Assembly (NCBI GenBank): GCA_964525605.1
Contig: CAZGKT010000001.1
Location: 133,153 to 197,152, forward strand
Direction: 5' to 3'
Length of the DNA stretch: 64,000 nt
From: an uncultured bacterium
GTDB taxonomy: Bacteria; Oederibacteriota; Muellerivitia; Muellerivitales; Muellerivitaceae
In this document: one piece after another, positions 15,542 through 55,350 of the stretch
Numbering within the stretch: position 1 is the stretch's first letter
Layout: every line of letters starts with the position of its first letter
Program-made: the position numbers and the translations under genes
Notes under the pieces: generated by a model
Told to the model about the DNA's origin: nothing
The model's database searches: none
What the model saw: only the letters and a program-made list of their open reading frames with translations

Positions 15542-15558
15542 ATTCTCGATGCCTTTTT

Positions 15559-17481: not shown

Positions 17482-17493
17482 TCAAACTTGATC

Positions 17494-18546
17494 TTATTGG
17501 CCCTTGATCTTGAAAAGGCTTCCAGCCCCTGCGTCAACAACAAGCAAGTTCCCATCCTTATCGACCGCCAGACCCATCGGAACGCGGAACAGATCGTTAC
17601 CAGCCGAATCCTTTTGAATCGAAGTCACCAAGGTTCCGTCGAGATGGTAGCAAAGAACCTGTTTGCCCCTGCCATCCGAAACGTACAGAAGCTGTTTCGT
17701 TTTATCCAATGCCAAGTGGGGTTCCATATCCACCTGATCCTTGACCCATCCCTTAACCGGCCATTGTTTTAGAAATTGTCCATCGGGGGAGAAAACCTGT
17801 ATCCTGAAATTTAATCGGTCGGCGACGTATAAATTTCCCGCTTGATCCAAAGCCAATCCGATGGGTTCATTGAATTCCCCGGGTTTTGTTCCCGGAATCG
17901 GGGCGCCTGACTTGGGGTCTACCGCACACCAGGTCCGTATTTTTTGGCCCTTGGGGTCGAATTTAACGACACGGTGTTTCCCAGTATCCGCGACATAGAT
18001 AAAACCATTTCCGTCGACCGCAACTTCTCGAGGTCCCCAAAATCCATCTCCAATAGCAAATGCCAACTTAGGATTGCCATTTTTATTGAATATTTGAATA
18101 CGGGCGTTCCAAGTGTCGGCGACATAAATAGTATCGTCAGAACCAATGGCAATACCATTCGGCTCGTTCAACTTTCCAGGAAGGGCTGAAGAAAGTTTCT
18201 TTGCGTCCCCACCGCCCACGTTGCCAAATCCCCCAAACTCACCTTGAAATTGCCAATTCTTGGCGGAGAACCGTTGAATTCGATGGTTCTTGCTGTCAGC
18301 CACAAAGATATCGCCCTTACTGTTGACGGCAATTCCGCGAGGATATGAAAACTGGCCCGGTCCGGATCCAGGAGTGCCCCCCATCAGTAAAACCAGGTTA
18401 GCTGCTGCAGGCGATGGTGCCCGGGAGATGATGGGTTTAGGTTTGGAAAGAACCATTGCCCATACCGCCGCCAAGGCCACTAAAATCAGAAGCCCAGCCA
18501 TGATGAGTTCCTTCAGTGTTACAATGCGTTCCCCGATCTTGATCAT
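17494..18546 (-). CDS. N-terminally membrane-anchored NHL-repeat beta-propeller protein (paralog)
   Basis: 350 aa. TM anchor (LIMAGLLILVALAAVWAMV). NHL repeats ('NHRIQRFSAKNWQF', 'NARIQIFNKNGNP', 'KHRVVKFDPKGQK', 'NFRIQVFSPDGQF'). 12-bp spacing to the downstream NHL gene. Confidence 0.75.
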   Translation of the reverse strand: MIKIGERIVTLKELIMAGLLILVALAAVWAMVLSKPKPIISRAPSPAAANLVLLMGGTPGSGPGQFSYPRGIAVNSKGDIFVADSKNHRIQRFSAKNWQFQGEFGGFGNVGGGDAKKLSSALPGKLNEPNGIAIGSDDTIYVADTWNARIQIFNKNGNPKLAFAIGDGFWGPREVAVDGNGFIYVADTGKHRVVKFDPKGQKIRTWCAVDPKSGAPIPGTKPGEFNEPIGLALDQAGNLYVADRLNFRIQVFSPDGQFLKQWPVKGWVKDQVDMEPHLALDKTKQLLYVSDGRGKQVLCYHLDGTLVTSIQKDSAGNDLFRVPMGLAVDKDGNLLVVDAGAGSLFKIKGQ

Positions 18547-18574
18547 TTTCCAACCCTCCCGTTGAATTTTGAAA

Positions 18575-21118
18575 TTATGGATTTAGTTTGTACAACATGG
18601 AATTCCCAACTGCGTATACCAAACTTCCCAATTGGGCGAATTTGGAAAAAGCACCCGTATTCGCCGAGTATTTCTGCCGTTCCGCATCTCCTACATATAT
18701 GTAATCTATATTGTATTTCGTTAATAAGTCCTTTGTTTTTGCGAGATCCATAGAGGTATAGATGGTTTCTACATCCCCCTGGCGACGTTGAATTGTATCA
18801 TCAGAATTCTGTCCCCGGATAACTGCCTGGTCCCAAGATCCACGCCACTGAGCTTCATGAAAATCCCATCCAAGGACCGTTGGAAATCCTGTCAGAGTGG
18901 CCACGGTATCTGTATCTTGATGATATGACAACCCCGGGCATTCCAAAATGATTGGCACCTTTACTCCTGATAAATTTCCCTGTTTTACAGTCGGTTTCAC
19001 ATTTATTTTAATCCATTGCGCCACTTGAAAATCCGCCGGGAAAGTTCGTTCGTAATAAACAGCTCCATCCATGGTAACGTTATCGACTGAAGAACCGTTC
19101 ATACGTGCTGTGAAGGCCAAAACGGGATAAAGGGCCGCCCCCAACAGCGCTAATCCGATCGTAAAACCCCAAACACTTTTTCCCAAGACAGTCCATTGCG
19201 GCCAAGCGTTTTCCATAATCCACTTGAGCCAAAAACCGGAAGCGAGGCTGAGTAAAATCCACGCCTGGTAATGAAACTTGAAAACCGTATTCATCCGATA
19301 AAGAGATCCTCCGGAAAAATGGTCTTTAATAAACACAATCTCACAGCCAATAATCAATAGAAAAGCAAGAAGTGCCAGAAGAGCAGAAAAAATGGTTTCC
19401 CTTGTTTCGGTCTTTTGAATGATCGATAGAACCGCCAACCCCGCCAACAGAAGCGTGGCGAACAGGGTTCCAAGTTTGAGGGCTTCTAAATCCAATAAGC
19501 CAAGCACTAATCCGATGGTTAATAAAGTAACAATCGGTATAAAACGACCCTTTGATCCGTTTAGATACGATATCAATTTATCGAAAATTCCCTGGAGTTG
19601 TACCTTTGGAAGAACCATGACCTCGGAGTCAGAAGCCAGACTCATTTCTCCACCACAAGTTCCACAGTATTTTTTACCAGGATTCTCTCTTCCGCAAAAG
19701 GAGCAGACAGGCTCCTCAGTCTTTTTCGTTTTGGCTTTACCGTTCTTTTCCAGATTCCCCTTCATGATGGATTTGATGATCAAGGCGGGAGTCAAAATCA
19801 AAAAGAACAAGCCAAATAGGATAAACAAATAATAAAGATGGGTTCGGTCCCCCACTATCCCCAGCCCTTTCGCTTGCGACTGAAACTTCAGATAAAAAGG
19901 TAGGTAGATGATGAAACTTCCAGCAACGATCGGAACACCCACTGTAGCTGTTTGAATTAACCAATCCATGAAAGTATCTTCTTTGGCAAGAGCCCAACCC
20001 TGTTGAAGAAAAAGACAGCTTCCTAATAAAAGCATGAAGGTTGGAAAATCCCAACTATTCATGAAGGATAGTCCGCCAAATAAAACCATGAGTAAAAACC
20101 AATAAATCCATCGAACAACGGGCCGTGCACCCAACACCTGCATGCCCCCGAAAGGCGTTCGTAGGAGCGAATAAGCCGCCGCGATCGCCAAAAGGACAAA
20201 CGGAATGGCCATCACATGGGGATGAAGGTCTGAAAGGAAAAAGCTAAATGAAGGAAACTCATTGATCATTTTATCCGTGGGAGGAACGGGAATGATCCGT
20301 GAGGCTTGAAAATAATCCCAACCATGGGCAAGAGGTGAAAAAAGAAAATCGAGGGCTGCCCCCAATCCTTTTGGGGCGCTGGGATTGGCTGGAAAATTGT
20401 AATAAGGGATTCGCAGGTCCCCTATTTGAAAACTCTGGATAACCCGATACCAATAATCCAAGTTTCCGAACAAGGCGAGAGCCGCCACAGAAAATAGAGA
20501 ATATCGATATCGGCGGGTTAACCCATAGGCCAGGGAAAAAGTACAAACCGCGGCCAAAGACCAAGTCAACGCAATCGCTAGGTTATAGGCCACGCCCGAA
20601 CCCACTCCGCTTAAAAGGGAAAGAGCGGAAACGATCATGTAGCCGAAGTAATAATAGGAAATACTGCCTCCAGAAAGCCAAGGATCCTGAGGAGGCATAG
20701 ACGGGGAAGCCAAAATGCCGTTGATCATGGCGAAATCCATGGGTTTTTCGGTCCCGACAATGTCTGGAGTGCGCATTTTGTAAGCACCGGCTATTAAAAA
20801 CGCCATGAGAAACAAAGATTCCACAACTAATATAAAACCCAGGTTTCTGCCCAGATATTCTTTGATGGAAACCCATTGATCCCAAAGAATCCATGAGGAG
20901 AGGAGAATCATCGTCAAGACCGCAAGCCAAACAGTCCCCCTTCCAAAGGAAACATAACCAAAGATCCAGGAAAAATAACCAACCATTAAAAGCGCAACCA
21001 CCTTACTAAAGGCATAGCCTTTTTCGGGAAGATGTCGCAAAAGGATCAAAGTAATTGGCAAAGCCAATATCCCCAAGATTTCAATCATGAACCACCAACC
21101 CAAAAGCGCCGCCATCAT
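18575..21118 (-). CDS. DUF2298 / 'YYY-domain' (TIGR03662-like) large polytopic membrane protein with internal zinc ribbon
   Basis: 847 aa. Signature 'GTEKPMDFAMINGILASPSMPPQDPWLSGGSISYYYFGY' (the YYY motif after the first TM block). Many TM helices. A cytoplasmic-loop zinc ribbon 'EPVCSFCGRENPGKKYCGTCGG' (aa ~470-490, nt ~19654-19710). C-terminal soluble domain ('PTVLGWDFHEAQWRG..IYTSMDLAKTKDLLTKYNIDYIYVG') homologous to the C-terminus of the 2053-aa protein. Confidence 0.65.
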   Translation of the reverse strand: MMAALLGWWFMIEILGILALPITLILLRHLPEKGYAFSKVVALLMVGYFSWIFGYVSFGRGTVWLAVLTMILLSSWILWDQWVSIKEYLGRNLGFILVVESLFLMAFLIAGAYKMRTPDIVGTEKPMDFAMINGILASPSMPPQDPWLSGGSISYYYFGYMIVSALSLLSGVGSGVAYNLAIALTWSLAAVCTFSLAYGLTRRYRYSLFSVAALALFGNLDYWYRVIQSFQIGDLRIPYYNFPANPSAPKGLGAALDFLFSPLAHGWDYFQASRIIPVPPTDKMINEFPSFSFFLSDLHPHVMAIPFVLLAIAAAYSLLRTPFGGMQVLGARPVVRWIYWFLLMVLFGGLSFMNSWDFPTFMLLLGSCLFLQQGWALAKEDTFMDWLIQTATVGVPIVAGSFIIYLPFYLKFQSQAKGLGIVGDRTHLYYLFILFGLFFLILTPALIIKSIMKGNLEKNGKAKTKKTEEPVCSFCGRENPGKKYCGTCGGEMSLASDSEVMVLPKVQLQGIFDKLISYLNGSKGRFIPIVTLLTIGLVLGLLDLEALKLGTLFATLLLAGLAVLSIIQKTETRETIFSALLALLAFLLIIGCEIVFIKDHFSGGSLYRMNTVFKFHYQAWILLSLASGFWLKWIMENAWPQWTVLGKSVWGFTIGLALLGAALYPVLAFTARMNGSSVDNVTMDGAVYYERTFPADFQVAQWIKINVKPTVKQGNLSGVKVPIILECPGLSYHQDTDTVATLTGFPTVLGWDFHEAQWRGSWDQAVIRGQNSDDTIQRRQGDVETIYTSMDLAKTKDLLTKYNIDYIYVGDAERQKYSANTGAFSKFAQLGSLVYAVGNSMLYKLNP

Positions 21119-27413: not shown

Positions 27414-27800
27414 TTACCGACAAAAAACCTGGGATCCCCCGACTTGAAGGTTATTACAAAACACCTTAAAAGAATATATTCCCGGGGCTGGAAAGACCAC
27501 CCGCCAACTGGTTATCAGGTCATGAAAGCTCATGTCGGAAAACAAAATCTTGCGTGGAGCCGAATCGGATACTTTGACCCCTTTTTCGTCAAAAAGACTA
27601 ATATCAATTTGAAATTCCCCTCCCGAAGGATGGTTCAGCCTGGTAAAAGTCATAAATTCAACCCCAAATGGATAACCCGGCGGCCCAAACCCTTGAAAAA
27701 CACCTCTTAAGTCGTAATTTTTATTCAAAACATCCTGAAAAATAGAATGACAACAGAGAAAGCTTGAAACCTTTGGCAGATTAAAATCAGTTGAGTTCAC
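27414..27800 (-). CDS. hypothetical small protein (128 aa), possibly translationally coupled to the upstream GT2
   Basis: Start overlaps the GT2 stop in an ATGA arrangement (27797-27800). No recognisable motif. The competing + strand ORF 27255..27710 overlaps the giant gene start and looks less plausible. Confidence 0.35.
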   Translation of the reverse strand: MNSTDFNLPKVSSFLCCHSIFQDVLNKNYDLRGVFQGFGPPGYPFGVEFMTFTRLNHPSGGEFQIDISLFDEKGVKVSDSAPRKILFSDMSFHDLITSWRVVFPAPGIYSFKVFCNNLQVGGSQVFCR

Positions 27801-28585
27801 TGGGGCCGCTTCCCTTTTTCTTTGAAGTACCTCAAAGCTTTTTGATTCATTTCACTTGGCACCTCGAATTTTTCTTTAGCCCCTAATAGCATCCGCCCAA
27901 AACACCAGAGACTCAAGGTTAAAACAATGAACCCATCCAAAACCGTGGTTCCGGCTCGGTAATAGGCAATTTTAACTAAAAATTGATTGTCAATACGGAA
28001 TTTGGCCCTGGCCGTGATAAGAGCGATTTCCTGGGCGCAGGAATATTTTATTCCCGTGTAAAAGGAAAGAATAGTCGGTAGGGTTCGAACCTGTAAGAGG
28101 CGAAGCCCCGATTCGACATCCTGATACCTGTGGCCAGAAAGCACTGAGTTTGTGAATGTTAAAAACCTATTTCCCCATATTTTATATCTTGGGTAGACGG
28201 AAAAATCCCTTTTCGTCAAAACCACATCCACTTTTTTCTTCAGCATGTACCGAACTAATTCGGGAATATATTCGGGTTTGTGTTGTCCATCCGCGTCGAG
28301 GGTGACCACGATGTCTGTATTACTCACGATTCCCTGATCGCGCAAGTATAAGACAAACAAAAACCCCTGTTTTAAGGCGCCGGCCATTCCTGAGTTAAGC
28401 TTTAAATCGACTAGAAACAAACTTTGATCTTTTCTAGAGAAAGCACAAAGAATTTCTCGGCTTCCATCGCTCGAGCCGTCATTCACGCAAACCAAATAAT
28501 CCACCCTCGGCCTTAAAAGGTGAAGAACGGAAAGAAGGTGTTTTTCTTCATTGAAAATTGGTAGTACCGCCACGACTTTTGGCAC
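27797..28585 (-). CDS. GT2-family glycosyltransferase (polyprenyl-phosphate sugar synthase, Dpm1-like)
   Basis: 262 aa: 'AVLPIFNEEKHL', 'VCVNDGSSDGSREIL', 'VVTLDADGQHKPEYIPEL' (DxD / D-x-D catalytic signatures). Basic C-terminal tail with a probable TM segment. Confidence 0.8.
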   Translation of the reverse strand: MPKVVAVLPIFNEEKHLLSVLHLLRPRVDYLVCVNDGSSDGSREILCAFSRKDQSLFLVDLKLNSGMAGALKQGFLFVLYLRDQGIVSNTDIVVTLDADGQHKPEYIPELVRYMLKKKVDVVLTKRDFSVYPRYKIWGNRFLTFTNSVLSGHRYQDVESGLRLLQVRTLPTILSFYTGIKYSCAQEIALITARAKFRIDNQFLVKIAYYRAGTTVLDGFIVLTLSLWCFGRMLLGAKEKFEVPSEMNQKALRYFKEKGKRPQ

Positions 28586-31752: not shown

Positions 31753-33711
31753 GTGGTATTTAAAAGAAACCAGCCCCTCTCCGCAATCACTTTACCCGGT
31801 ACCGTAAACTTAAATTCGTCGCTTCCAGTTAGTCCCCGTCCGGCCAGTTTGTATATAACCCTCGGAGTTAGCCTAGCGGCCTTTTTGATACCATTTATTG
31901 TTTATTTGGTAACCCTCAATCCTGCGCTTTTTAGGAACGACTCACCAGAGGTTGTGGTTGGTTGTGTGGGGCTGGGAATCATCCATGCGCCCGGGTATCC
32001 CCTCTTCATTCTCATCGGAAGGTTGTTCTCGTTATTTCCCATCGGCAACCCGGCCATGACGCTTAACCTCTTTGCGGCCTTCCTGGGCGGCTTCGCCACT
32101 CTTCTGTTCTTTCTTAACGCACGCCTTTTTTTGAACCGTCCCTCATTTTTTGACCTCACCTCCCCATCCCCGACTCATATGGAACTAATCTGCCTATTCT
32201 CCGCTTTAAATTTCGGCCTCTCCCAAACCTTCTGGAGCAACTCACTGGTTTCCAAGGGAGGCATCTATGTTTTGCAAATCGTCCTGGAACTTTCGCTCGT
32301 TCTTACCACCCAAATTTTTCTCGCAAAGGAGAAAAAACCCAAACCCAGTATTTTTTTATTGTTTCTATTTATTTTCGCGTTGGGGTTCTGCAACCACTGG
32401 CCCACCCAAGCGTTTTTGGGGTTTCTCGTGGCGTCGGCAGCATTATTTTCCCGGGCAAATAAACAAAAACTTGATCTCTCCCCAAAGCAAATCATTTTAG
32501 GATTTTCCCAATCGATTTTCGCCCTCAGCCTTTACCTTTATTTACCCATTCGTGCATTTGCAAAACCCATCATCGATTTTGGTGCACCCACGAATCTTTT
32601 TCGCTTTTTGGAAACAATTACGCGAATGAACTATCTAAAGGTGGAAACCCTAGCGACTGCCCCTGTCGGATCCTATCTGTCATTGTTTTATAAAATGGAA
32701 TATATCTCCAACCACACCTTGAGAGAATTCTGTCCGTTTTTCCTGTTTTTCGTTTTGGCGGGAAGTTATTTTCTGTTCAAACGGGACAAACCATTGTGTC
32801 TTTCTGCCGTAGGTTTGATGGCACTCGTGCTTGTTACCAATATTTTTTATCTTCAGGCCACTCCCATTGAATATTGGCATATCGCCGATCATTTACTAAC
32901 AAATAACTGGGTCATCGGATTTTTGGGGTGTATCGGTTTATTTTCTCTCTTTTCCAAAATTAACCGCTTTGGAAAACACCTTCTTTTATTTTGCTTACTC
33001 GCGATGGTTCCTTTGGTGTACCTCAACGGCATCCAGGCCAACAACCAAACCCGGCAATTTCTTTATGTCGGCTACGGTCTTACCGCTCTCAAATCATTGC
33101 CCCTTGACTCCATTTATTTCTCGGAGAATGATTACGATTACTTCTCAGCTCTCTATCTAACGGAAACCCTCCAGTTACGCCCTGACATCCATTTAATTCT
33201 CACGCCTTTTTTAGACAAGGTTTATCAGTTTGATAACGCGTTAGAACGCGTCAAACCTTTATTTGCAAAACAAAGTGATGTGTTCAGCAAAGAACAAGTC
33301 TACAGATGTGTCACGAACACCGATTTTGGCCATCCTCTTTATTGCACTTTTCCGGACGCCTACTTTTCAACCTCTTATTTAGCCTCGCATTCACGATTAG
33401 CCTTTGAGCCACATGACCTTTTGACCCATATCCTCAACCCAAGTGAAAAACCCATTCCAAAAAGTGATTTCTATTTCTTGCGTGACTTTCAGGAACACTA
33501 CCTCGACCCGGAAATATTTAATCCAAACGAGATCAACGGGCTGCTGAAAGAAATTTGCGCTTACCCACTGCTCAATGCAGCTAAATATGAAACAGTATTT
33601 GGAAATACCCAACACCGGGATTGGTATTTCGTCTCGGCCCTCGAACTAATCAGTGAACCAAATTTCTTCAATACTGTCATACGAGAATACAAAAATAAAA
33701 CAACCCGTTAA
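31753..33711 (+). CDS. DUF2723 / TMEM260-like GT-C polytopic membrane protein (putative protein O-mannosyltransferase family)
   Basis: 652 aa. First loop 'RNDSPEVVVGCVGLGIIHAPGYPLFILIGRLF' resembles the conserved 'HPPGYPL' segment of DUF2723 proteins. ~11 TM helices followed by a C-terminal soluble domain. Confidence 0.55.
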   Translation: MVFKRNQPLSAITLPGTVNLNSSLPVSPRPASLYITLGVSLAAFLIPFIVYLVTLNPALFRNDSPEVVVGCVGLGIIHAPGYPLFILIGRLFSLFPIGNPAMTLNLFAAFLGGFATLLFFLNARLFLNRPSFFDLTSPSPTHMELICLFSALNFGLSQTFWSNSLVSKGGIYVLQIVLELSLVLTTQIFLAKEKKPKPSIFLLFLFIFALGFCNHWPTQAFLGFLVASAALFSRANKQKLDLSPKQIILGFSQSIFALSLYLYLPIRAFAKPIIDFGAPTNLFRFLETITRMNYLKVETLATAPVGSYLSLFYKMEYISNHTLREFCPFFLFFVLAGSYFLFKRDKPLCLSAVGLMALVLVTNIFYLQATPIEYWHIADHLLTNNWVIGFLGCIGLFSLFSKINRFGKHLLLFCLLAMVPLVYLNGIQANNQTRQFLYVGYGLTALKSLPLDSIYFSENDYDYFSALYLTETLQLRPDIHLILTPFLDKVYQFDNALERVKPLFAKQSDVFSKEQVYRCVTNTDFGHPLYCTFPDAYFSTSYLASHSRLAFEPHDLLTHILNPSEKPIPKSDFYFLRDFQEHYLDPEIFNPNEINGLLKEICAYPLLNAAKYETVFGNTQHRDWYFVSALELISEPNFFNTVIREYKNKTTR

Positions 33712-33914: not shown

Positions 33915-34033
<119 letters not shown>

Positions 34034-34129
34034 ACATCGAGATCGTTAACTGTTATTAGCAGTTAAAAAGATTGATTGAAATACTATCCTTGAACCAAAG
34101 TGGATTAGGAATTGCGGTGAAGATGAAAC

Positions 34130-37163
<3,034 letters not shown>

Positions 37164-37370
37164 CATGCTTCTTCGCCACCGCATAAGAATTCACTAATGC
37201 ACTCGGTTCAGCTAATAATAGTATTTCAATCAATTGTCAAAGAACCGCCCCGCTTTTAAAAAGCGGTTCTGGCCATCAGCCAGAAGATACTTTCACTCAA
37301 GAAGTAAAAGCTCCGTGAATTTCTAGCAATAAAAATTCACGCAACCTTCACTCGAAGCCACCACCATTTA

Positions 37371-37446
37371 TGGTGGAGATGACCGGGATCGAACCGGTGA
37401 CCCCCTGCTTGCAAAGCAGGTGCTCTCCCAACTGAGCTACATCCCC
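37371..37446 (-). tRNA. tRNA-Ala (anticodon TGC), in the 16S-23S spacer
   Basis: Revcomp 'GGGGAUGUAGCUCAGUUGGGAGAGCACCUGCUUUGCAAGCAGGGGGUCACCGGUUCGAUCCCGGUCAUCUCCACCA'. Cloverleaf with G3:U70 and a CCA end. Confidence 0.9.
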
Positions 37447-37475
37447 CCGGATCTAACCAGAAGCCCACGCATAGA

Positions 37476-37552
37476 TGGTGGGCCTAACTGGAGTCGAACC
37501 AGTCACCTCGCCCTTATCAGGGGCGCGCTCTAACCAACTGAGCTATAGGCCC
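37476..37552 (-). tRNA. tRNA-Ile (anticodon GAT), in the 16S-23S spacer
   Basis: Revcomp 'GGGCCUAUAGCUCAGUUGGUUAGAGCGCGCCCCUGAUAAGGGCGAGGUGACUGGUUCGACUCCAGUUAGGCCCACCA'. Confidence 0.9.
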
Positions 37553-37712
37553 ATCCCAGTTTGGCGCAGACAGGCAAAAAAATGCCCTCAACTTTAAAAG
37601 AACCGATTCGGTATCGGTCTCTCAAAACTAAATAGTGCTCAACTTGTTTAGGTATCCACTTGGAGTTACGTTAAGGCGCACCCTAAATAGGGTTCCCCTA
37701 ACATGTTCTCCA

Positions 37713-39262
<1,550 letters not shown>

Positions 39263-39578
39263 GAATTTGAGGCTCTAAAAACTCAAACTACTATTGACTA
39301 GCACCCAAACTTATTTCGTAAGCACTATTTAGTTTTCAAAGACCGATCACAGACAAGCATCCATACGATGCTTACCCCACCGGAGACAACAATATTCGCC
39401 GGTGCCGTAAGCACCGCAATCGAAGCCAACTTACATTCGATTGTGTGGGTATCGTATTTAAAAGAACAACTTCACCGCTCACCAGAGGAGCAGGGGCCAC
39501 AAGCCATAGTGGCCGGGGAATGTGTTATACAAAAATAGCTCTTCCCCGTCAACAATATTTTACATAATCTTTAAATAT

Positions 39579-45368: not shown

Positions 45369-47648
45369 TCATTCGACTTGTCGGTAATCTTTCAAAGCTC
45401 CTTTGCACAAACTTCCGACGTCAATGGATTTACCATAAACCATTCCTCCATTGCCTGGTGCCATTCTTAAATAACACCCGAGGGCCCGTGCAGCACTTTT
45501 TTTGTCTCCCGCGCTTAAGTCAACGCGTCTTTCAATCTCATACCCCCATCCCCACTCAGGACAACGTTTTAATAATAGTTTAGCTTCTTCTAATCCCTCG
45601 CGAACATTATCTGGATTCGATTCCACCAACCGAATAATTTTTTCCTGCAACCCCGGCAAATCCTTTAACGGGAAGGAATGTGGGGATGGCGTTTCCTCAA
45701 CAAGATACACTGTGCAATTTTCAAGGCAAAGAAGGGGGTTGGCATAGTGCTTCCAAAATTCGATGTATGAAACCTCCGGTATCCCAGTTACCTCAAATCC
45801 CTTCTCCTTCCCCGACATCATGACCGCCTCTTCCCTTTGATACAGGATGTATTTAACACCTTCTTCCTTTAATCGTCTGGCCAATCCCTCTGCCGTCTGA
45901 GCACTTGCCGCCCACTTGAAAAGAATTGGTTCTTTCCAAAAGAAATCAACATACGACATTCGGCACAGGGGATAGGTTTGGAAAACCCCAAAGGCCAAAA
46001 CCTTATCCCGCGGAGAGGAGTTATTTTCTATTTCGCGATAAGCAGCATAGGTATCCAAGTTAAAAGAATAATTTCTTTTAAGGCGAACCAACGAATCTTC
46101 CATTCCGATAGCCGTGGCATAGGGAGCGGTCGTTTGAATTTGCGTGAAAAGAGTTAACACGAACGAAAAAATGATCCCCACGAAAAATATTAATTTCGCC
46201 TTCGATCCCCCGTCCCGAAAGGCCTCGCCCCAAAGAAAAGTGGCCAGAACCAATAATGCCAAGCAACCACCCGATCCATGTCTGAGGTTCGTACAAAGTA
46301 GAGCCCAGATCCCAAAATAAATTAAAGTGAATATGATCAATAGAAAAATTCTTTTTTCTCTAGTTTTAATCCATACCCCCCATGGCAAGGACATAAAAAC
46401 CAATGGCGTCCAGGAAGCCCCCAATCCATTTTCAGGGGTAAAAAAAACAAGCCAAAGCCGCTTTAACGATTCAAAAATATTTTCGCCGAAAATCCTTCCC
46501 GTGTCGGTCCAAAGCGCCATTTCCATAGAGGGATCAAACCCTGGAGGTCCACCGAAAACACCTGTCCCGAGAGGATAAACAGGGTTCCCATTGGCCATTC
46601 CATTTCGTAAATACCAGGGTAATGGGCAAAGAACAAAAACAGCAAATAACACCCAATTCATCTTTGTTTTAAATACTCCCGGCTTTGCAAGCAAAAGCAA
46701 TGCGGTTACCCCCACCATCCCCAACAGCGCCGTGTATTTCGTGGCAATAGCCGCGCCCATAAAAAAGAACCCGTTCAGAAGCCAAACCTTTTGGCGCGGT
46801 TTTTCAATAAATTCCAAAAGCGAGATCAGGGATAAAATCTCAAACAGAGCCAAATGTCCCTCGACATATCCCCATGCAAACAATGCCAAAAAGAAGGGAC
46901 AGGTTAAAAAGATGCAGGGCCCTAGATACGCGGGAAATCCTTTGGAAGCGGGATATACCATTAAAATCCAAACGGTCAATCCTACTGAGATGGCCATGGA
47001 AGCTTTCGCCATAAATTCTCCGCCCATAGCCCAAAATCCGGCCCAAATCATTTCAACGAATTTGGGCATATCCCCTGTGTGATTTGTCCAATGAATGGGG
47101 AGCGAGTGAAGTCTCACCACTTCGCCTGCAAAGCGGAAATGATCCAATACCGCGTCCCAAATTAAAGGGGGTGATAAAAACTCAAACATCCAGACACAAA
47201 GAATGAAAATTCCACCCCCGATCACCCAGGGTTTCAGAACCGGAATTTTAAAATTTTTAACCCGGGATACAAAATCAAATAATCCTCGGGGAACGAAGGG
47301 CAGAAAAAAACAAATAGCTGTCAGGGGAAATAAAAGTCCATTAACCGCCCATCCAAACGAATAACATGAAAACATGCACAGGACCGCGGTATGGGCAAAA
47401 GGATCTCGAAGTTTTGAATCCAAAGAGCCAAGAAAAAGTCTCGAGATTGAAGAGGCCCACCCGCACCAGCCAAGCCAAACCGGGATGGCCATTAAGATCG
47501 CTGTCAGACGAATACGCCAATAGTCCCCCGCGAGGCTCGGATCCCAGGGAGTGTCCAAAAGTATGCGAAACGAGGGATGTAAAAATGAAAATTTTGTTGC
47601 CAAAAGAAAAAGAACGAAAAAGAAGAGTGAAAAAAGCGTTCGGGTCAA
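45369..47648 (-). CDS. large polytopic membrane protein with C-terminal soluble domain (possible GT-C / lipid-linked glycosyl- or aminoarabinosyl-transferase-like)
   Basis: 759 aa, ~14 predicted TM helices over the first ~500 aa, then a ~250-aa soluble domain. No firm motif assignment. Similar overall architecture to the other GT-C-like proteins in the window. Confidence 0.45.
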   Translation of the reverse strand: MTRTLFSLFFFVLFLLATKFSFLHPSFRILLDTPWDPSLAGDYWRIRLTAILMAIPVWLGWCGWASSISRLFLGSLDSKLRDPFAHTAVLCMFSCYSFGWAVNGLLFPLTAICFFLPFVPRGLFDFVSRVKNFKIPVLKPWVIGGGIFILCVWMFEFLSPPLIWDAVLDHFRFAGEVVRLHSLPIHWTNHTGDMPKFVEMIWAGFWAMGGEFMAKASMAISVGLTVWILMVYPASKGFPAYLGPCIFLTCPFFLALFAWGYVEGHLALFEILSLISLLEFIEKPRQKVWLLNGFFFMGAAIATKYTALLGMVGVTALLLLAKPGVFKTKMNWVLFAVFVLCPLPWYLRNGMANGNPVYPLGTGVFGGPPGFDPSMEMALWTDTGRIFGENIFESLKRLWLVFFTPENGLGASWTPLVFMSLPWGVWIKTREKRIFLLIIFTLIYFGIWALLCTNLRHGSGGCLALLVLATFLWGEAFRDGGSKAKLIFFVGIIFSFVLTLFTQIQTTAPYATAIGMEDSLVRLKRNYSFNLDTYAAYREIENNSSPRDKVLAFGVFQTYPLCRMSYVDFFWKEPILFKWAASAQTAEGLARRLKEEGVKYILYQREEAVMMSGKEKGFEVTGIPEVSYIEFWKHYANPLLCLENCTVYLVEETPSPHSFPLKDLPGLQEKIIRLVESNPDNVREGLEEAKLLLKRCPEWGWGYEIERRVDLSAGDKKSAARALGCYLRMAPGNGGMVYGKSIDVGSLCKGALKDYRQVE

Positions 47649-49104: not shown

Positions 49105-50121
49105 TTATCCCTTTATCCAGCCCTCTTGTTGATAAAAACTTGCCGCATCCCGCACGCCTTTTTCAAGGTTCCATTGTGGCTTGAAACCCAATTGGGCGCG
49201 AATCTTTCCGTTATCACAGGTCCAATGGGTATAAAAAGCCTCTTTTACCTTGTCCACATTCAGCATGGAGGCTTTCCCGCTTATTTTCTCAGCCAATTCT
49301 CCCGCATAAGCGACAATCCGAACCACCCCCATGGGAATCGGGATGGTTCGAAATTTCCGCCTCATCGCCTTGCCGATTTCCCGGGTCAGCTCCTGCCAAC
49401 TGTAGGGTATGCCGTCCGACACGAAATAAACCTGACCTACCGCCTTAGGCGAATGGCCCGCCAATAGAATGGCGTTCACTAGATCTTGCACATGGACGAA
49501 ACTGACTTCCTGCTTTAAGGATGGGAGCAAAACCCAGCCATCCTTCACCATTTTGAAATAGGCGAAAATATCGGTTTCACGCGGCCCATACACAGCGCCT
49601 GGCCGGAGAATCGTCAAGGGAAGTCTTTTTCCGTAAGCCTGGGCTAATTCCTCTCCCTTGAATTTCGTCACACCATAAAGCGAAACAGGCTGACAGGGTA
49701 AATTTTCTTTGAGGGGCTTTCCGTCCCGGCTAGGTCCCGCCGCAGACAAAGAGCTGACATAAACAAGCCTTTTCAGCCCTTTCACTTTCAACGCCGCCTC
49801 GCACACATTCCGTGTTCCCTCGGCGTTGACCTCGTTTAATTTTATAAAGCTAGAACCTCGTAATATTCCCGCCAAATGGTAAATGACCTTAACGCCTTGA
49901 GCGGCCTTCACCACCGAATCGCGATCCGTGACATCCCCATAGCACAATTGAATTTGCGGCCCCACTTTGAAAGGAATTTTGCTTGTCTTGCGAACTAGCA
50001 GGTTTACCTTCACGCCGTTTTGGGCCAGTTTTTCCGCCAAGTGGCTTCCCACAAAGCCGCTTGCGCCGGTCACTAATACTGGGGATGAAAATTTCATGGT
50101 AAGTCCTGGTTTATTAGGCAA
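49105..50121 (-). CDS. NAD(P)-dependent epimerase/dehydratase-family (extended SDR) oxidoreductase; candidate 3-ketosphinganine/ceramide reductase
   Basis: 338 aa: N-terminal 'VLVTGASGFVGSHLAEKL' Rossmann motif and an extended-SDR 'Y..xK'-type catalytic region ('LYGVTKFKGE'). Divergently adjacent to an SPT-like gene. Confidence 0.8.
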   Translation of the reverse strand: MPNKPGLTMKFSSPVLVTGASGFVGSHLAEKLAQNGVKVNLLVRKTSKIPFKVGPQIQLCYGDVTDRDSVVKAAQGVKVIYHLAGILRGSSFIKLNEVNAEGTRNVCEAALKVKGLKRLVYVSSLSAAGPSRDGKPLKENLPCQPVSLYGVTKFKGEELAQAYGKRLPLTILRPGAVYGPRETDIFAYFKMVKDGWVLLPSLKQEVSFVHVQDLVNAILLAGHSPKAVGQVYFVSDGIPYSWQELTREIGKAMRRKFRTIPIPMGVVRIVAYAGELAEKISGKASMLNVDKVKEAFYTHWTCDNGKIRAQLGFKPQWNLEKGVRDAASFYQQEGWIKG

Positions 50122-50296
50122 AAAGTTTGAACTGGCAAGCGGGCATCATTATAATGCCCCCGCTTCTGGCAACAACCTTTCGAACCGTGTTTATACAAAA
50201 TTTGCCCCTCCGATCGGTTTAAGACCCGCTCCCAATGGGTAAGCCGGAAAATTCAAGCTGTATTGATTAAACCAACCCAAATCATGAAGAGGCCCC

Positions 50297-51478
50297 ATGG
50301 ATATTTTTGATAAGGCGAACAATTGGACTGCGGCAGATGACGTGCGGAAGGCCGGCCTTTATCCCTACTTCCGCCCCAACACTTCCAAAATGGGGACTGA
50401 AGTCACCATTGGCGGCAAAAAAATGATCATGGTGGGCTCTAACAATTACCTGGGACTGGTTACCCATCCTGAAGTGCTTGAAGCCATGGTTAATGCCATC
50501 AATAAGTATGGTTCCGCCTGCACCGGCTCCCCTTTCCTGAACGGCACCCTCGATATCCGAGTGGAATTGGAAGAAAAATTGGCCGATTTTGTCCACATGG
50601 AAGAGACCCTTGTCTATTCCACCGGCTTCCTGGCTAACCTGGGAGCGCTCTCCACTATTGCCACCCGGGGCGATTACATCATTTCCGACCGCGATAACCA
50701 CGCCTCCATCGTCGATGGCCAAAAGCTTTCCTACGCCAAGACGGTCAAGTACCTTCATAACGACATGGAAGACCTGGAGCGGGTCCTTTCGAACCATCCG
50801 GATGTCCCCAAACTTATCGTGACCGATGGGGTCTTCTCCATGGGAGGGGATGTTTGCCACCTTCCCAAGATCGTCGAGCTTAAGAAAAAATACAAAGCCC
50901 GGCTGATGGTGGACGAGGCCCATTCCATCGGCGTTCTCGGCCCCCAGGGGGATGGTACCGGCCCCCATTTCGGCGTTCAAAAAGATGTGGATATGGTCAT
51001 GGGTACCTTTTCCAAGTCCCTGGTCTCCATCGGCGGCTTTATCGCCTCTACACACAAGGTCATCGATTATCTGCGCCACAATAGCCGCCCGCTCATCTTC
51101 ACGGCCAGCCTATCCCCCGCCGACACGGCCGCCGTTTTGAAGAGCCTGGAAATCATCAAGCGCGAACCCGACCGCCAGAAACGCCTTTGGGAAATCATCA
51201 AGCGTATGCGCACCGAGTTCAACGCCATGGGTTACAACACCCTCAACACCAATTCCGCCATCATTCCCCTCATGGTGGGAGACAACTTGAAAACCTTCGC
51301 CATGACCAAGGAACTGGGCGAAATGGGGGTCTTCGCCACACCCGTGGTATCGCCCGCCGTGCCGCCAGAACAAACCCTCATCCGCACTTCCTACACCGCC
51401 ACCCACACCGACGCCCAGTTGAGCCATGTATTGGAGGCGTTCCGCACGGTGGGCAAGAAGTATGGGGTTATCCACTAA
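50297..51478 (+). CDS. spt: alpha-oxoamine synthase family PLP enzyme, serine palmitoyltransferase-like
   Basis: 393 aa. PLP-lysine region 'GTFSKSLVSIGGF'. 'MVDEAHSIGVLGPQGDG'. N-terminal 'VGSNNYLGL' and C-terminal 'IRTSYTATHTDAQLSHVLEAFRTVGKKYGVIH'. These track the Sphingomonas SPT blocks 'LGTYNYMGM', 'LVDEAHSMGFFGPNGRG', 'GTFSKSVGTVGGF', '..CSICAEHTPAQIQTVLGMFQAAGRAVGVIG' more closely than BioF/Kbl. Confidence 0.75.
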   Translation: MDIFDKANNWTAADDVRKAGLYPYFRPNTSKMGTEVTIGGKKMIMVGSNNYLGLVTHPEVLEAMVNAINKYGSACTGSPFLNGTLDIRVELEEKLADFVHMEETLVYSTGFLANLGALSTIATRGDYIISDRDNHASIVDGQKLSYAKTVKYLHNDMEDLERVLSNHPDVPKLIVTDGVFSMGGDVCHLPKIVELKKKYKARLMVDEAHSIGVLGPQGDGTGPHFGVQKDVDMVMGTFSKSLVSIGGFIASTHKVIDYLRHNSRPLIFTASLSPADTAAVLKSLEIIKREPDRQKRLWEIIKRMRTEFNAMGYNTLNTNSAIIPLMVGDNLKTFAMTKELGEMGVFATPVVSPAVPPEQTLIRTSYTATHTDAQLSHVLEAFRTVGKKYGVIH

Positions 51479-51593
51479 CCAGGTTGCGGGAAGGTAAACT
51501 TGCCTTCCCTGCTCCCTTAAAAAATTGTCCCCGAAGTCAAATTTCTATAGAATCTTGTCCTGTCTATTTAATTTTTTATAGCGAGGGAAAAAC

Positions 51594-52742
51594 GTGGCTA
51601 TCACGATTAAGACAGTTGAAACCAAGCAGGATATCGAAACCTTTCTTCATCTACCGTGGAAAATCTATGTCTCGCCGGATGGAAAAAGAGACCCCAACTG
51701 GGTGCCACCCTTCCTCGACGACCAGCGCAGTCTGCTCAGCCCGCAAAAAAACCCCTACCACCAGCACAGCCGAACCAAACTCTTCATGGCCTTCAACGAT
51801 AAGAACGAGCTGGTGGGCCGCATCTCCGCCAGCGTGGACGACAATTTCAACCGGTTCTGGACCTCCAAGGTCGGTTTTTTCGGATGGTTCGAGTGCGTGA
51901 ACGACCAGACCGTGGCCAACGCCCTATTCGCCGAGGGGGAGAAGTTCTTCAAGTCGGAGGGTATCAGCGAAGTTCGGGGCCCGGCCAGTTTCACCTCCAA
52001 CGACGATTATTTCGGTTTTCTCTTAGAAGGATATGATTCCCCGGCTCGCATTGCCATGACCTACAACCCGCCCTATTACCTCCAACTAACCGAAAAAGCT
52101 GGTTACACCAAGGCCAAAGATCTTTACGCCTGGTACCTTTCCGCGGAAATTGACATTCCAGAGCGTATCGCGAAAATCGTCGATCGCACCATGAAACGTG
52201 AAAGAATCACGATCCGTCCCCTCAACATGAAGCGGCTCTTCGAGGATGCGAAGATTCTTCAAGAACTCTACAACAAGATCTGGGAAAAGAACTGGGGCTT
52301 CGTGCCCATGACCGACGAGGAATTCAAATATCAGGTCAAGAAACTCAAGGACATCGTCTGGGCCGATTTCGTGGTTTTCGCCGAGGTCGATGGCAAGGCA
52401 GTTGGCTTCAATCTGGTGGTACCGGATATCAACCAGGTTCTGATCAAAATGGACGGCGAGCTCTTTTCGTTGAAAACACCCTTCGCCCTGATCACCTTCC
52501 TCACGAATATCGGAAAAATCAACGATACCCGCGAAATGGCCATGGGAATCCATCCCGATTACCGTAAAAAGGGGTTGGAAGCCGTTCTCTATCTGGAAGG
52601 GCTTAAAACCGGCAAGAAACGCAAGATCAAGGGGGGGGAGCTGTCCTGGACCCTGGAAGACAACGAGGGCATCAACAGCGGCATCACGGCCATGGGTGGA
52701 AAGATCGTCAAAAAGTACCGTATCTACTCAAAAGCCATTTAG
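51594..52742 (+). CDS. GNAT/FemAB-fold N-acyltransferase-like protein (~380 aa); candidate bacterial ceramide synthase
   Basis: 382 aa. Two tandem acyl-CoA N-acyltransferase-like halves (a pattern seen in FemAB/bCerS-type proteins). Located 115 bp downstream of the SPT-like gene on the same strand. The family assignment is from fold-level impression, not a specific motif. Confidence 0.4.
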   Translation: MAITIKTVETKQDIETFLHLPWKIYVSPDGKRDPNWVPPFLDDQRSLLSPQKNPYHQHSRTKLFMAFNDKNELVGRISASVDDNFNRFWTSKVGFFGWFECVNDQTVANALFAEGEKFFKSEGISEVRGPASFTSNDDYFGFLLEGYDSPARIAMTYNPPYYLQLTEKAGYTKAKDLYAWYLSAEIDIPERIAKIVDRTMKRERITIRPLNMKRLFEDAKILQELYNKIWEKNWGFVPMTDEEFKYQVKKLKDIVWADFVVFAEVDGKAVGFNLVVPDINQVLIKMDGELFSLKTPFALITFLTNIGKINDTREMAMGIHPDYRKKGLEAVLYLEGLKTGKKRKIKGGELSWTLEDNEGINSGITAMGGKIVKKYRIYSKAI

Positions 52743-52830: not shown

Positions 52831-55350
52831 CTATCGAAGAATCAACACCTTCTTAAGCCACTTATCTGATGGGGTGGTCACAACGGCGTAGAAAAGGCCA
52901 TTGCTGATCTTGGAGAGGTCGAAATCATCCAGGATGAGGGTATAGGCCCCGGCGGACACGTATGGCCAATTACGCTGATAGATCTTCCGGTATGCCGTGG
53001 TGAAAATCTTGACCGTTACGTAATCGTGCGGCTGGCTGAAATAAACAGCAACCTGGAGGGGTCCATTCCCCTTCACCGGGTTGGGATAAATAACCGGCGG
53101 TTGGTTGGTCGCAATAGTTGGTGACGGCGTCGCGGTTAGCGTGACGGTAACGGTTACAGTTTGTGTTATCGATAAGGTCGGGCTAGGCGTGAAGGTGAAG
53201 GTATTTGTGGGGGTAGAGGAATAGGTCCAGGTCGAGGTCACAGTGGGTGTATTGGTTATCGTGCTGGTAACGGTCCATGTGGGGGTAAAGGTGGGAGTTA
53301 GAGTAACGGTGGGCGTTAAAGAGATGGTCGGGGTATTGGTGATAGTGGGGGTATTGGTCGCCGTGAGTGTATTGGTCACGGTTCCCGTATTGGTGGGCGT
53401 CATGGTCCAGGTGGGGGACAGGGTTTCCGTAGGTGAGGGGGTATAAGTAAGGGTATTGGTGATCGTGGGGGTATTGGACGAAGTGGCTGTATTGGTGGGT
53501 GTTCCGGTCCAAGTGGAGGTATTTGTATTTGTTGGCGAAAGAGTAAATGTCGAAGTGTTGGTAATCGTAAGAGTCGAAGTCACCGTGGGAGTGTTGGTGG
53601 ATGTCGTAGTGGAAGTCGCTGTCGAGGTCGCAGTGGGGCTTAGGGTATCCGTGATAGTAGAAGTTACCGTTGGCGTGTCTGAAACCGTAAAGGTTGAGGT
53701 AACGGTGGATGTAACTGTTGGAGTGCTGGTAAAGGTAAATGTCGGGGACAGGGTCGAGGTTAAGGTATTGGTGGGGCTTAGCGTAATGGTAGGAGTGTTG
53801 GTGACGGTATTGGTAAAGGTCATCGTGAGGGTATTTGTTATGGTGCTTGTCTGGGTAATGGTGGGCGAAAGCGTGGGGGTACTGGTGTTGACCGTCCCGG
53901 GACAAAAACTGGCATAGATCGAATCCCACCCGTTATTACCACCGTTCACCGTGAAATAGGAAACAGGGCTACTGAACCCCGAAGATGCATTCGGAAAGGT
54001 AAAACCCGGGTTTAAAACGTAGCCGATGACCCCCCAGGTGGTGGCCGGGGAGTTCTGGTAATTAAAGACGAAACTCAGAGGCGCGTCAAATTCGTAGGTC
54101 AGCCAATAGTTCCCCGCCGCCAGGTAGGTTGGGTTCATCTGCAGGATGTTCCATTGTCCCGGGGTTACCATCATATAAGTCACGGATTGGGCCTGCAGGT
54201 TTCCCATAACCCAGGTGGTCCCAGATGAAGCCGCACTATATATGGCGGATTGAATGTAAGCTCCGGTGTCCAAACTGTTGTTCGGGACATAGAGCGACAT
54301 CGTATAAACCGTCCCCGCCTGAGGCAGGTTATAAAAGTCGGCCCGCATTTCCTCTTGGACAGCCGTAGCCGGGCCTCCAGCTGAAATTGTATCCCCAAAA
54401 TAAGTTACAGCGCTCCCGCATGGCGGGGTTAAGGAAAGATTGGGAGTGACTGTATCAGTTTGAGACGGAGTCTCGGACATCGTTGGGACAGGCGTATAGG
54501 TGAAGGTTAAAGTCGGAGTGTTGGTATAAATCGTCCCGGTCATTGTTGCGGTTGATGTGATGGTGGGCGTCGGTGAAACGGTGGGCGTGTTGGTCGGAGT
54601 GATGGTGTTGGATACTGTCGGGGTGCTGGTCGGAACAATACAATAGTTGGCGTAAATGGGCACATTACCCGCGCCATAGGCGATGCTTGCCGGGGCGGAA
54701 CTGGGTAGACTCCCAAAGACTTGGGATGCGGTCGTATAAACTAAATATCCATTCGTCCCTGTCGCGTAATTCAGGCTGTACCCGTTTGTGTTGTACATAT
54801 AAACCAACCAATAGAACCCCGAACTTAACTCGGTCGGTGTTATGAAAAATCCATTCCAGCCGGCTACGACCGGTTGAGGTGCTGATTGAACGACGAGAGT
54901 CCCCAGACTGCTGACGCTCCCAGAGTAGATGCCGACGATCAAAGACGCTCCCCCGGAATTGCTCCAAGCCGTGAGGCTGTAAACCGAAGCCGGTTTGCTC
55001 AAAGTATATAAACTTCCGTAAATTCCAGGAGCGGTAGCCGCACTCCCATTGTTTAATCCGGTCGCGTTATTCCCAAAGAAAGTCGCCGAAGCTCCGCAGG
55101 GGGGAGTAAGTGTTAAATTCTGGGTTGGTGAATCGGTGGGGGTATTCGTCGGCAGGTTGGTGTTTGTGATGGTCGGGGTCATTGTGATCGTTGGAGTATT
55201 GGTCATCGTTCGGGTCATTGTGGGCGTCGAGGAATTCGTGAAAGTCCGCGTTACCGTGGGCGTGGAAGTATTGGCTGCAAAACCGTTGGTCGACACGAGT
55301 AAAAGTAATCCCGTTAACAAAACCAAAGACGTAAACCGCAAGGTGGTCAT
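52831..55350 (-). CDS. secreted Thr/Pro/Ser-rich mucin-like surface protein with T9SS-type C-terminal sorting domain (Por_Secre_tail-like)
   Basis: 839 aa with a signal peptide ([17 protein letters not shown]). Two lectin/Ig-like globular segments separated by long 'TPT(V/I)T(N/S)T' low-complexity tracts (hundreds of Thr). C-terminal ~85 aa '[79 protein letters not shown]' matches the T9SS CTD pattern (YPNP ... G.Y.... G.Y...V....... K.L). Confidence 0.7.

Follow-up and report, generated by a model that had tools for sequence, protein, structure and literature searches.

A Thr/Pro-rich modular protein, predicted to be secreted, with a divergent T9SS-like C-terminal domain in an uncultured FCPU426-like bacterium

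Introduction

What does a protein with long Thr-rich tracts do for the bacterium that encodes it, and by which route would it leave the cell? The question is raised by one open reading frame (ORF) in a stretch of 64,000 nucleotides from an uncultured bacterium (GenBank assembly GCA_964525605.1, contig CAZGKT010000001.1, positions 133,153 to 197,152), and this whole stretch is called the window below. An earlier inspection of the DNA, the sequence-only reading, had described the product as a mucin-like surface protein ending in a type IX secretion system (T9SS) sorting domain and had linked it to a putative glycosylation locus. The observation is confirmed overall and that first interpretation is partly supported. 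The sequence supports a modular, Thr/Pro-rich secreted protein whose C-terminal domain is of the sorting type. The description that fits it best is that of a divergent T9SS-like cargo, which would bind at the cell surface or outside the cell through two undescribed jelly-roll modules carried on long Thr-rich stalks that are probably O-glycosylated.

Architecture and authenticity of the protein

The ORF, at 52831-55350 on the minus strand with an ATG start, is given in the ORF listing as 839 amino acids and a stop codon. The protein has 209 Thr (25%), 89 Ser and 76 Pro, and its parts are listed in Table 1: a signal peptide, three Thr/Pro-rich linkers, two globular modules (A and B) and a C-terminal domain (CTD). 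The signal peptide was read from the sequence by eye; the first 25 residues read as a Sec signal peptide, and the protein is taken as probably Sec-exported. The signal peptide and the two beta-rich globular segments of the sequence-only reading were recovered here by inspection, from the ORF listing, by BLASTP and in AlphaFold2 (AF2) models. Scans of the whole protein with Pfam and NCBIfam gave no match, probably by reason of compositional bias, and scans of single segments were then used.

Such a composition raises the doubt that repeats were collapsed or chimerically joined in the assembly, or that low-complexity DNA which codes for nothing was taken for an ORF. The low complexity itself speaks for this, and so do the look-ups: the exact protein has no record in public assemblies, and no second assembly of this gene turned up, either with a codon-degenerate pattern (0 matches) or with the ortholog alignment (a single relative, at 48%). 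The repeat structure points the other way, as the longest exact DNA self-match within the coding sequence (CDS) is 13 nt, the Thr codons are mixed (ACC 99, ACG 45, ACT 36, ACA 29, so that all four are in use) and Tandem Repeats Finder (TRF) reports essentially nothing. Three orthologs, each from an independent assembly (P0001-P0003, 53-66% identity), can be aligned with the target from one end to the other, so that four orthologous sequences agree over the full length with the linkers nearly gapless; the modules and the CTD fold with a predicted local distance difference test (pLDDT) score of at least 90, and the neighbourhood is syntenic in a related locus (L055). The collapsed-repeat artefact that the sequence-only reading had named as its own risk was not borne out, because orthologs that were assembled independently keep both the length of the linkers and their Thr register, and an artefact of either kind is extremely improbable.

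One of the orthologs (P0003) is also positional, with the contig order RsmB, amidohydrolase, target, GNAT, aminotransferase, SDR, unknown, PMT_2 and DUF4921. The flanking proteins are 76-89% identical to their counterparts in L055 and the target only 53%, a pattern typical of a fast-evolving exposed surface protein. A promoter and terminator scan gave nothing above chance.

The C-terminal domain

The sequence-only reading had assigned the last ~85 residues to the T9SS CTD pattern, and the residues that it quotes are indeed there. The domain lies at the extreme C-terminus (aa 749-839 of 839) of a protein with an N-terminal signal peptide. Scanned alone, it scores 18.8 bits (18.8-18.9) against PF18962, with a cutoff of 27, an E-value of 0.002 and a full-length alignment; it scores 14.8 bits against TIGR04183 (cutoff 23) and 12 bits against FlgD_ig (PF13860, cutoff 27). 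The search with Por_Secre_tail models that had been proposed as a check, read strictly, therefore returned no significant match for the target itself (18.8 vs 27 and 14.8 vs 23), an outcome that the sequence-only reading had named as refuting. No FlgD N-terminal domain is present in the protein, and it does not qualify as a FlgD Ig member.

What can be said beyond single scores comes from the family. Among the 120 best database matches, 94 end in the same CTD, with the consensus YPNP...(V/I)FT(T/L)AFRKV...(A)NGLYYVV...KLLILR. When 66 related CTDs were scanned singly, 37 matched Por_Secre_tail at E<=0.01 (best 1.3e-9), 32 matched FlgD_ig and 2 matched CHU_C. A profile of the 66 CTDs searched against the PDB matches the CTD of Porphyromonas gingivalis PorU at E=7.8e-6, and also the Flavobacterium johnsoniae CTDs 8glj/8glk and FlgD, the last at 5e-4. 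The matches to FlgD_ig and FlgD indicate relatedness at the level of the superfamily only.

The AF2 model of the CTD (pLDDT 95.2) predicts a seven-stranded immunoglobulin (Ig)-like beta-sandwich. Its Foldseek neighbours include the mirolase CTD (8qb1), the PorU CTD (template modelling (TM) score 0.69), DUF3244, FlgD and other Ig domains, so the modelled fold is consistent with a T9SS CTD but not discriminating. Type A CTDs have as their hallmark a Lys that hardly ever varies and lies in the final beta-strand, close to the C-terminus (PMC10994853, PMC11285876). The matching residue of the target is K834, within KKVLILR and five residues from the end; at least 90% of the 66 CTDs keep it, and it aligns with the Lys of the PorU CTD.

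The place and the company of the domain are as regular as its sequence. Across the window and 53 related loci, 79 of its 92 occurrences stop no more than two residues short of the end of the protein, and 71 of 83 CTD proteins finish with R or K. Its carriers in the lineage include GH5, GH8, GH9, GH16, GH18, GH26 and GH116 enzymes, NHL and BNR propellers and discoidin-domain proteins, a set typical of T9SS-style cargo. From sequence and model together it is concluded that the CTD is a divergent member of the T9SS type A/FlgD-Ig superfamily, apparently behaving as a lineage-wide sorting tag. The homology claimed by the sequence-only reading therefore stands at the superfamily level (family matches, PorU profile, seven-strand model and Lys), and it falls short for the target's own CTD, which lies below the curated cutoffs. 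If the CTD is a true sorting signal, a lineage-specific CTD class missed by curated models would be defined.

A second CTD flavour was observed in the lineage. In L055 (13903-14256) a 117-aa protein consists of a signal peptide and a single canonical CTD-like domain of the CHU_C/FlgD_ig type, and domains of this type also occur in L019, L029, L042, L046 and L049.

Host lineage

From its T9SS-type CTD the sequence-only reading had expected a host in the Fibrobacteres-Chlorobi-Bacteroidetes (FCB) superphylum. One genome per GTDB species was scanned with a close subfamily of 10 CTD sequences, which gave 47 loci, almost all in metagenome-assembled genomes (MAGs) titled candidate division FCPU426. 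The same scan found one Firestonebacteria MAG and a sub-clade titled 'proteobacterium' with the same CTD, modules and linkers. NCBI taxonomy places FCPU426 under 'Bacteria candidate phyla' and not in the FCB group, and by MAG titles and this taxonomy the expected affiliation, whether to Bacteroidota or to FCB more widely, fails. The FCPU426 16S cluster has been linked to Goldbacteria by Doud et al. (PMC7031533). The close relatives of the UvrA encoded in the window are 74-89% identical to it, and a UvrA labelled FCPU426 is only 62% identical, so that UvrA did not make the placement any sharper; the FCPU426-like phylum label is moderately secure and not certain. Nothing was found in the literature on T9SS or Thr-rich linkers in FCPU426 or Goldbacteria.

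Several MAGs with the CTD, modules and linkers of this lineage, among them those of L009, L013, L014, L021 and L039, carry the titles 'uncultured proteobacterium' or 'Proteobacteria bacterium', which are probably taxonomic mislabels. The 2-Mb contig of L044 is titled 'uncultured proteobacterium'.

Export machinery and PorV-family barrels

Two outer-membrane protein paralogs of the FadL/PorV family had been reported in the window, and both are present (2031-3044 and 11728-12780; NF033709, PF19572). The first passes the PorV/PorQ family cutoff and the second narrowly misses NF033709 (87 vs 90). Neither reaches an equivalog score: the first has 77 against 250 for PorV (NF033710), 96 against 220 for PorQ (NF033711) and 52 against 325 for PorV2 (NF052325), and the second has 25.5, 46 and 128.7 against the same three cutoffs. 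By phmmer the first has no match to solved PorV and the second has a weak one, to F. johnsoniae 6h3i_F at E=0.17. The first gene adjoins UvrA and the second LptD/LptFG, and an rRNA operon and housekeeping genes separate both from the target.

Gene pairs in the relatives bear on the question more directly. At 15361-17823 of L012, a CTD-bearing NHL protein, which passes Por_Secre_tail (28.4 vs 27), lies directly upstream of a third PorV-family paralog, and the same pair of NHL-CTD and PorV-family genes is found in L009, L015, L016 and L001/L013. In L053 the partners are a CHU_C/FlgD_ig protein and a PorV/PorP_SprF-like gene. A CTD protein above the Pfam Por_Secre_tail threshold thus precedes a PorV-family gene in at least five genomes. 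Such adjacent pairs recall, by analogy, the cargo-carrier pairs of Bacteroidota.

The core machinery itself was looked for in the 64-kb window and in ~0.85 Mb of related DNA, the latter screened by ORF size, by Pfam on selected ORFs and by motif scan. No SprA/Sov, PorU, PorZ or GldKLMN was seen in this DNA, which is a very small part of these genomes and far too small for the result to count as absence, and a motif scan for GldK/PorK of the FGE-sulfatase type over the ORFs of the window and related loci found none, a result of little weight given the small coverage. Three kinds of candidates were rejected. A 2271-aa ORF of L044, considered as SprA, is a repetitive surface protein without Pfam match; the 730-aa neighbour of the PorV2-like gene, considered as PorU, is a Pro-rich low-complexity protein; and eight ORFs with a CTD but little Thr, examined as possible PorU/PorZ-like machinery, turned out to encode ordinary cargo (GH9, NHL, BNR and discoidin proteins). 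Two of these proteins are observations in their own right. The L044 protein (13099-19911) is secreted, has about ten Cys-containing repeats of ~200 aa and adjoins CTD cargo genes. The 730-aa protein of the window (9430-11622, minus strand) is secreted, has 'LPPLPG'-type repeats and no family match, and lies between the PorV2-like outer-membrane protein gene and lptFG/lptD.

It may be argued from these results that the CTD is only a structural or anchoring Ig-like domain of the FlgD_ig type, that the protein leaves by a type II secretion system, vesicles or lysis, or stays periplasmic, and that the barrels are unrelated FadL-like transporters. The sub-threshold Por_Secre_tail score of the target fits this, as does the finding that FlgD_ig is matched by nearly as many relatives (32/66) as Por_Secre_tail (37/66) and that Foldseek does not separate T9SS CTDs from other small Ig sandwiches. 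In the DNA examined no T9SS core gene was seen, the PorV-family barrels overlap the FadL and UPF0164 families, which are found in bacteria without T9SS, and the lineage lies outside FCB, where T9SS is said to be absent (PMC11285876). On the other side, the domain is strictly C-terminal, has the conserved Lys and a basic last residue and is common to very diverse secreted enzymes, so that it behaves as a sorting tag and not as a functional Ig module; its best sequence match in the PDB is a T9SS CTD; and CTD cargo and PorV-family genes stand side by side in relatives. A purely structural Ig-like domain is held to be rather unlikely, and a T9SS-like sorting role is preferred.

Thr-rich linkers and their possible glycosylation

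The three linkers contain 43-50% Thr and 60-77% Thr, Pro and Ser together, and they qualify as extracytoplasmic Ser/Thr/Pro-rich tracts of low complexity. The sequence-only reading had seen TPTVT-type repeats in them, and its proposed check for tandem repeats was carried out. At the DNA level no tandem repeats are found: TRF gives only 3 weak arrays of 2.4-3.3 copies, the copies of the best direct-repeat family (42 nt) are 60-81% identical, and the tracts are not organised as a variable number tandem repeat array. What they have is a cryptic periodicity of 2 and 6 residues only. In linker 3, 100 of 118 Thr have another Thr at i+2, and Pro comes about every six residues. The tracts are thus not mucin-type tandem repeats but a cryptic T-x-T-x pattern. 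Linker 3 is ~255-271 aa long in all four aligned sequences, where alternate Thr are invariant and the residues between them vary.

Glycosyltransferase (GT) genes of the right type (GT2 and GT-C/PMT-like) are abundant in the window, in line with the putative glycosylation locus of the sequence-only reading: five GT-C and two GT2 genes are present (Table 1). The two GT2 enzymes best resemble AglJ, PgfS, Dol-P-hexose transferase and PpgS. PMT_2 scores among the GT-C genes are 31.4 and 23 against a gathering score of 26.1, and the PMT_2-type gene near the target has an ortholog at the same relative position in L055 (60% identity). No enzyme of the window scores at equivalog level with a protein O-glycosyltransferase whose activity is proven. 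As a class, the lineage's CTD proteins are rich in Thr, with a median of 18.6% where the background has 4.8%. In streptococci (PMC5856776, PMC12041528) and in actinobacteria (PMC5882110), surface proteins are known to be glycosylated in their Thr-rich parts by systems of GT2 and GT-C enzymes, and by analogy O-glycosylation of the linkers is plausible.

The tracts could also do without sugars, either as self-sufficient Pro-kinked spacers or as beta-structured Thr ladders that bind crystalline polysaccharide, mineral or ice. The strict T-x-T-x register would suit such a role, as the Thr are invariant across orthologs and many of the varying residues between them have hydrophobic or aromatic side chains (F, W, V, I, L, Y), and no glycosyltransferase is found among the immediate gene neighbours. 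Against it stand a Pro about every 6 residues and the fact that the segment is left out of confident models. The window and the lineage are moreover unusually rich in GT-C/PMT-like and polyprenyl-phosphate-sugar synthase-like genes, and streptococci and actinobacteria glycosylate Ser/Thr-rich regions of a comparable kind outside the cytoplasm (PMC12041528, PMC5882110). Unglycosylated structural tracts are judged quite unlikely, and this reading is not mutually exclusive with that of glycosylated stalks. Very Thr-rich, register-conserved linkers found across a secretome, in a region crowded with PMT-like GT-C glycosyltransferases, are worth describing in their own right.

Globular modules A and B

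The two modules are homologous to each other (BLASTP E=7e-14, 34% identity). Two invariant Cys flank each of them near the ends (C85/C237 in A, Cys311/Cys483 in B), and each has the core motif GWN...YW(L/I)(A/V)Y within an overall pattern PPCG...GWN...YW...YC. The module, of ~165 aa, has 90 occurrences in 38 of the 121 proteins examined, with 1-4 copies each, and in relatives it is sometimes joined to GH16, peptidase M64 or beta-propeller domains. An exhaustive profile search found 10,278 cluster representatives of the family at E<=1e-3 and 2,886 at E<=1e-10.

The AF2 model (pLDDT 90.6, predicted TM score (pTM) 0.88) is an all-beta jelly-roll of 10 strands. Its nearest folds by Foldseek are the lectin-like domain of Cwp84 (TM 0.64-0.68), the carbohydrate-binding module (CBM) of acetyl-xylan esterases and the polymer-binding domain of a PVA-esterase; CBM6/35, PHR domains and the capsid decoration protein of a cyanophage are also among them. 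Identity is below 20% in every case, with TM scores from 0.5 to 0.68. At the sequence level, modules A and B have no match in Pfam or NCBIfam and do not belong to a CBM family there, a profile of 31 modules finds nothing in the PDB below E=1.6, and proteins that consist of modules only carry no Pfam annotation. An undescribed lectin/CBM-like binding module is the most economical reading of the models. A jelly-roll family of ~165 aa with more than 10,000 representatives and apparently without Pfam coverage is worth describing in its own right, and the target becomes a candidate substrate-binding or adhesion factor for polysaccharide degraders of the FCPU426/Goldbacteria type.

Proposed explanation and its significance

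The balance of the evidence leans, by a little, towards a Sec-exported surface or extracellular binding protein of an FCPU426-like bacterium with O-glycosylated linkers, a T9SS-like CTD route and polymer-binding modules. The protein would first be exported by Sec to the periplasm. There the Thr-rich spacers would be O-glycosylated by GT-C (PMT-like) enzymes, for which polyprenyl-phosphate sugars made by the GT2 enzymes would serve as donors. A T9SS-like route across the outer membrane would next recognise the CTD, perhaps with a PorV/PorQ-family barrel as carrier, and the protein would end on or outside the cell, where the lectin/CBM-like modules may bind a polymer, probably a polysaccharide, at the tip of extended glycosylated stalks.

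Several findings weigh against this explanation. Besides the low scores of the target's own CTD with all three models and the missing core genes in the DNA screened, the two PorV-family genes are not PorV/PorQ equivalogs, are barely detectable against solved PorV and are 40-50 kb away from the target. By sequence the modules do not significantly match any known CBM or lectin, and their Foldseek E-values are modest. The PMT_2 match of the neighbouring gene is below the gathering score, and the immediate neighbours of the target resemble lipid metabolism and not glycosylation. T9SS genes are described from Bacteroidota and perhaps other FCB phyla, and are stated to be absent elsewhere (PMC11285876).

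A wider proposal goes beyond the single protein: the FCPU426/Goldbacteria-like lineage may have a divergent T9SS-like pathway outside FCB, with its own CTD class (FTTAFRKV/ANGLYY/KLLILR) and several PorV-family carriers, some paired gene by gene with cargo, possibly without canonical SprA/PorU, and joined to an O-glycosylation of T-x-T-x linkers that an enlarged set of GT-C enzymes would carry out in the periplasm throughout the phylum. As a whole this proposal is unlikely to hold. If true, it would mean that CTD-based sorting at the outer membrane reaches further across phyla than is now accepted, and it would define a new architecture of glycoprotein secretomes. A true sorting signal in the CTD would by itself mean T9SS-style tagging of cargo, with PorV-family partners, in a candidate phylum beyond the published range. 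Taken singly, the target is one more hypothetical surface protein of a MAG and a fairly ordinary cargo protein; the interest would rise if complete genomes showed T9SS outside FCB, or CTD-based sorting without the canonical core.

Gene neighbourhood and other features of the window

The link between secretion and a glycosylation locus, as claimed in the sequence-only reading, is not upheld beyond co-occurrence within 64 kb: the conserved neighbours of the target are an amidohydrolase, a GNAT-like protein, a serine-palmitoyltransferase-like enzyme and an SDR. Beside the target, at 49105-52742, lies a trio made up of a serine-palmitoyltransferase-like alpha-oxoamine synthase (NF047600, CFB-type, 517 bits vs a cutoff of 640), a reductase of the SDR/epimerase family and a GNAT-like protein of 382 aa. 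Its order is kept in L055 at 80-89% identity, and by sequence the trio resembles a bacterial sphingolipid or ceramide-type synthesis cluster.

Elsewhere in the window an unusual concentration of GT-C genes was observed at 12988-33711 and 45369-47648, with two NHL-repeat proteins (16450-18546) amid the GT-C and GT2 genes. A complete rRNA operon occupies 33916-39263 on the minus strand. The coordinates of all features are collected in Table 1.

Table 1. Features of the target gene and of the window (positions are those of the window; scores are given against cutoffs)
Feature	Position	Strand	Basis
Whole CDS of the target	52831-55350	-	ORF listing; full-length orthologs P0001-P0003 at 53-66% identity; positional ortholog in L055
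Signal peptide, aa 1-25 (MTTLRF..NGFA/AN)	55276-55350	-	By inspection: positive n-region, Leu-rich h-region, GFA-A cleavage-type motif
Thr/Pro-rich linker 1, aa 26-76	55123-55275	-	43-47% Thr (sliding composition)
Globular module A, aa 77-240 (PPCG...YANYC), predicted beta-jelly-roll	54631-55122	-	Module hidden Markov model (HMM), AF2 model, Foldseek, C85/C237
Thr/Pro-rich linker 2, aa 241-302	54445-54630	-	Composition; aligned in orthologs
Globular module B, aa 303-486, homologous to A	53893-54444	-	BLASTP E=7e-14; module HMM 139.6 bits; Cys311/Cys483
Thr/Pro-rich linker 3, aa 487-748, T-x-T-x register	53107-53892	-	45-50% Thr; length conserved in orthologs
CTD, aa 749-839, 91 aa, T9SS type A/FlgD-Ig-like	52834-53106	-	PF18962 alignment, family-level matches, PorU CTD profile match, AF2, K834
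PorV/PorQ-family outer-membrane beta-barrel, candidate CTD carrier	2031-3044	-	NF033709 180.1 vs 90; PF19572 31.6 vs 27
Second PorV-family paralog, best match 'PorV2', putatively associated	11728-12780	-	NF052325 128.7 vs 325; NF033709 87 vs 90; UPF0164 22.6 vs 21.4
Agl23-like GT-C	12988-15489		241.9 vs 126
GT2	15559-16287		Best resemblances polyprenyl-phosphate-sugar synthases
YYY/DUF2298 (chlor_Arch_YYY) GT-C	18575-21118		
YYY/DUF2298 GT-C, 2053 aa	21152-27313		
GT2	27797-28585		Best resemblances polyprenyl-phosphate-sugar synthases
TMEM260-like GT-C	31753-33711		80 vs 24
5S rRNA	33916-34031	-	rRNA operon
23S rRNA	34132-37162	-	rRNA operon
tRNA-Ala	37371-37446	-	rRNA operon
tRNA-Ile	37476-37552	-	rRNA operon
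16S rRNA	37716-39263	-	rRNA operon; full-length
PMT_2-type GT-C, conserved neighbour ~5 kb from target, candidate linker O-glycosyltransferase	45369-47648	-	PF13231 23 bits vs gathering score 26.1

Comparison with known systems

The nearest parallel is the type A cargo of the Bacteroidota T9SS, as in F. johnsoniae RemA/RemZ/NucA, P. gingivalis RgpB and the KLIKK proteases of Tannerella forsythia, which has the same layout of Sec signal peptide, passenger and CTD. The CTDs of these proteins, like that of the target, have ~80-90 aa, a seven-strand Ig-like fold (predicted in the target) and a conserved Lys in the last strand, and in both groups the cargo is dominated by carbohydrate-active enzymes and adhesins and PorV-family barrels are encoded in the genome. 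The target CTD differs in its own motifs, YPNP...FTTA[FY]RK[IV]...ANGLYY...KLLILR, and in its scores below the PF18962 and TIGR04183 cutoffs. It differs also in its FCPU426-like host, whose PorV-family proteins are not PorV/PorQ equivalogs and for which no SprA, PorU or GldKLMN was seen in the DNA screened.

Glycoside hydrolases tailed with FlgD_ig or Por_Secre_tail domains in Goldbacteria, Firestonebacteria and other candidate-phylum MAGs share the CTD type and the Thr-rich linkers with the target, and probably also the sorting pathway. Unlike them, the target has no catalytic domain and carries only two copies of the undescribed jelly-roll module.

With the lectin-like domain of Clostridioides difficile Cwp84, the acetyl-xylan esterase CBM, CBM6/CBM35 and PHR domains this module shares the predicted fold (TM 0.5-0.68), and with lectin/CBM jelly-rolls an accessory use, since it stands beside enzymes in the relatives of the target. 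It is set apart from them by identities below 20%, by the lack of a family match in Pfam, NCBIfam and PDB and by its own Cys pair and GWN...YW motif.

For the linkers, the parallels are Cnm and WapA of Streptococcus mutans with the Pgf system (GT2 PgfS and GT-C PgfM1/M2) and the substrates of actinobacterial Ppm1/Pmt, which likewise have extracytoplasmic Thr-rich tracts. As in the Pgf and Ppm1/Pmt systems, GT2 polyprenyl-phosphate-sugar-synthase-like and GT-C/PMT-like enzymes are encoded in the target's genome. Unlike the Pgf and Pmt enzymes, those of the window reach no equivalog cutoff, and glycosylation here is predicted only. Unlike the substrates of these systems, the target belongs to a diderm host, and its tracts are much longer (~45% Thr over 262 aa) and keep a strict T-x-T-x register.

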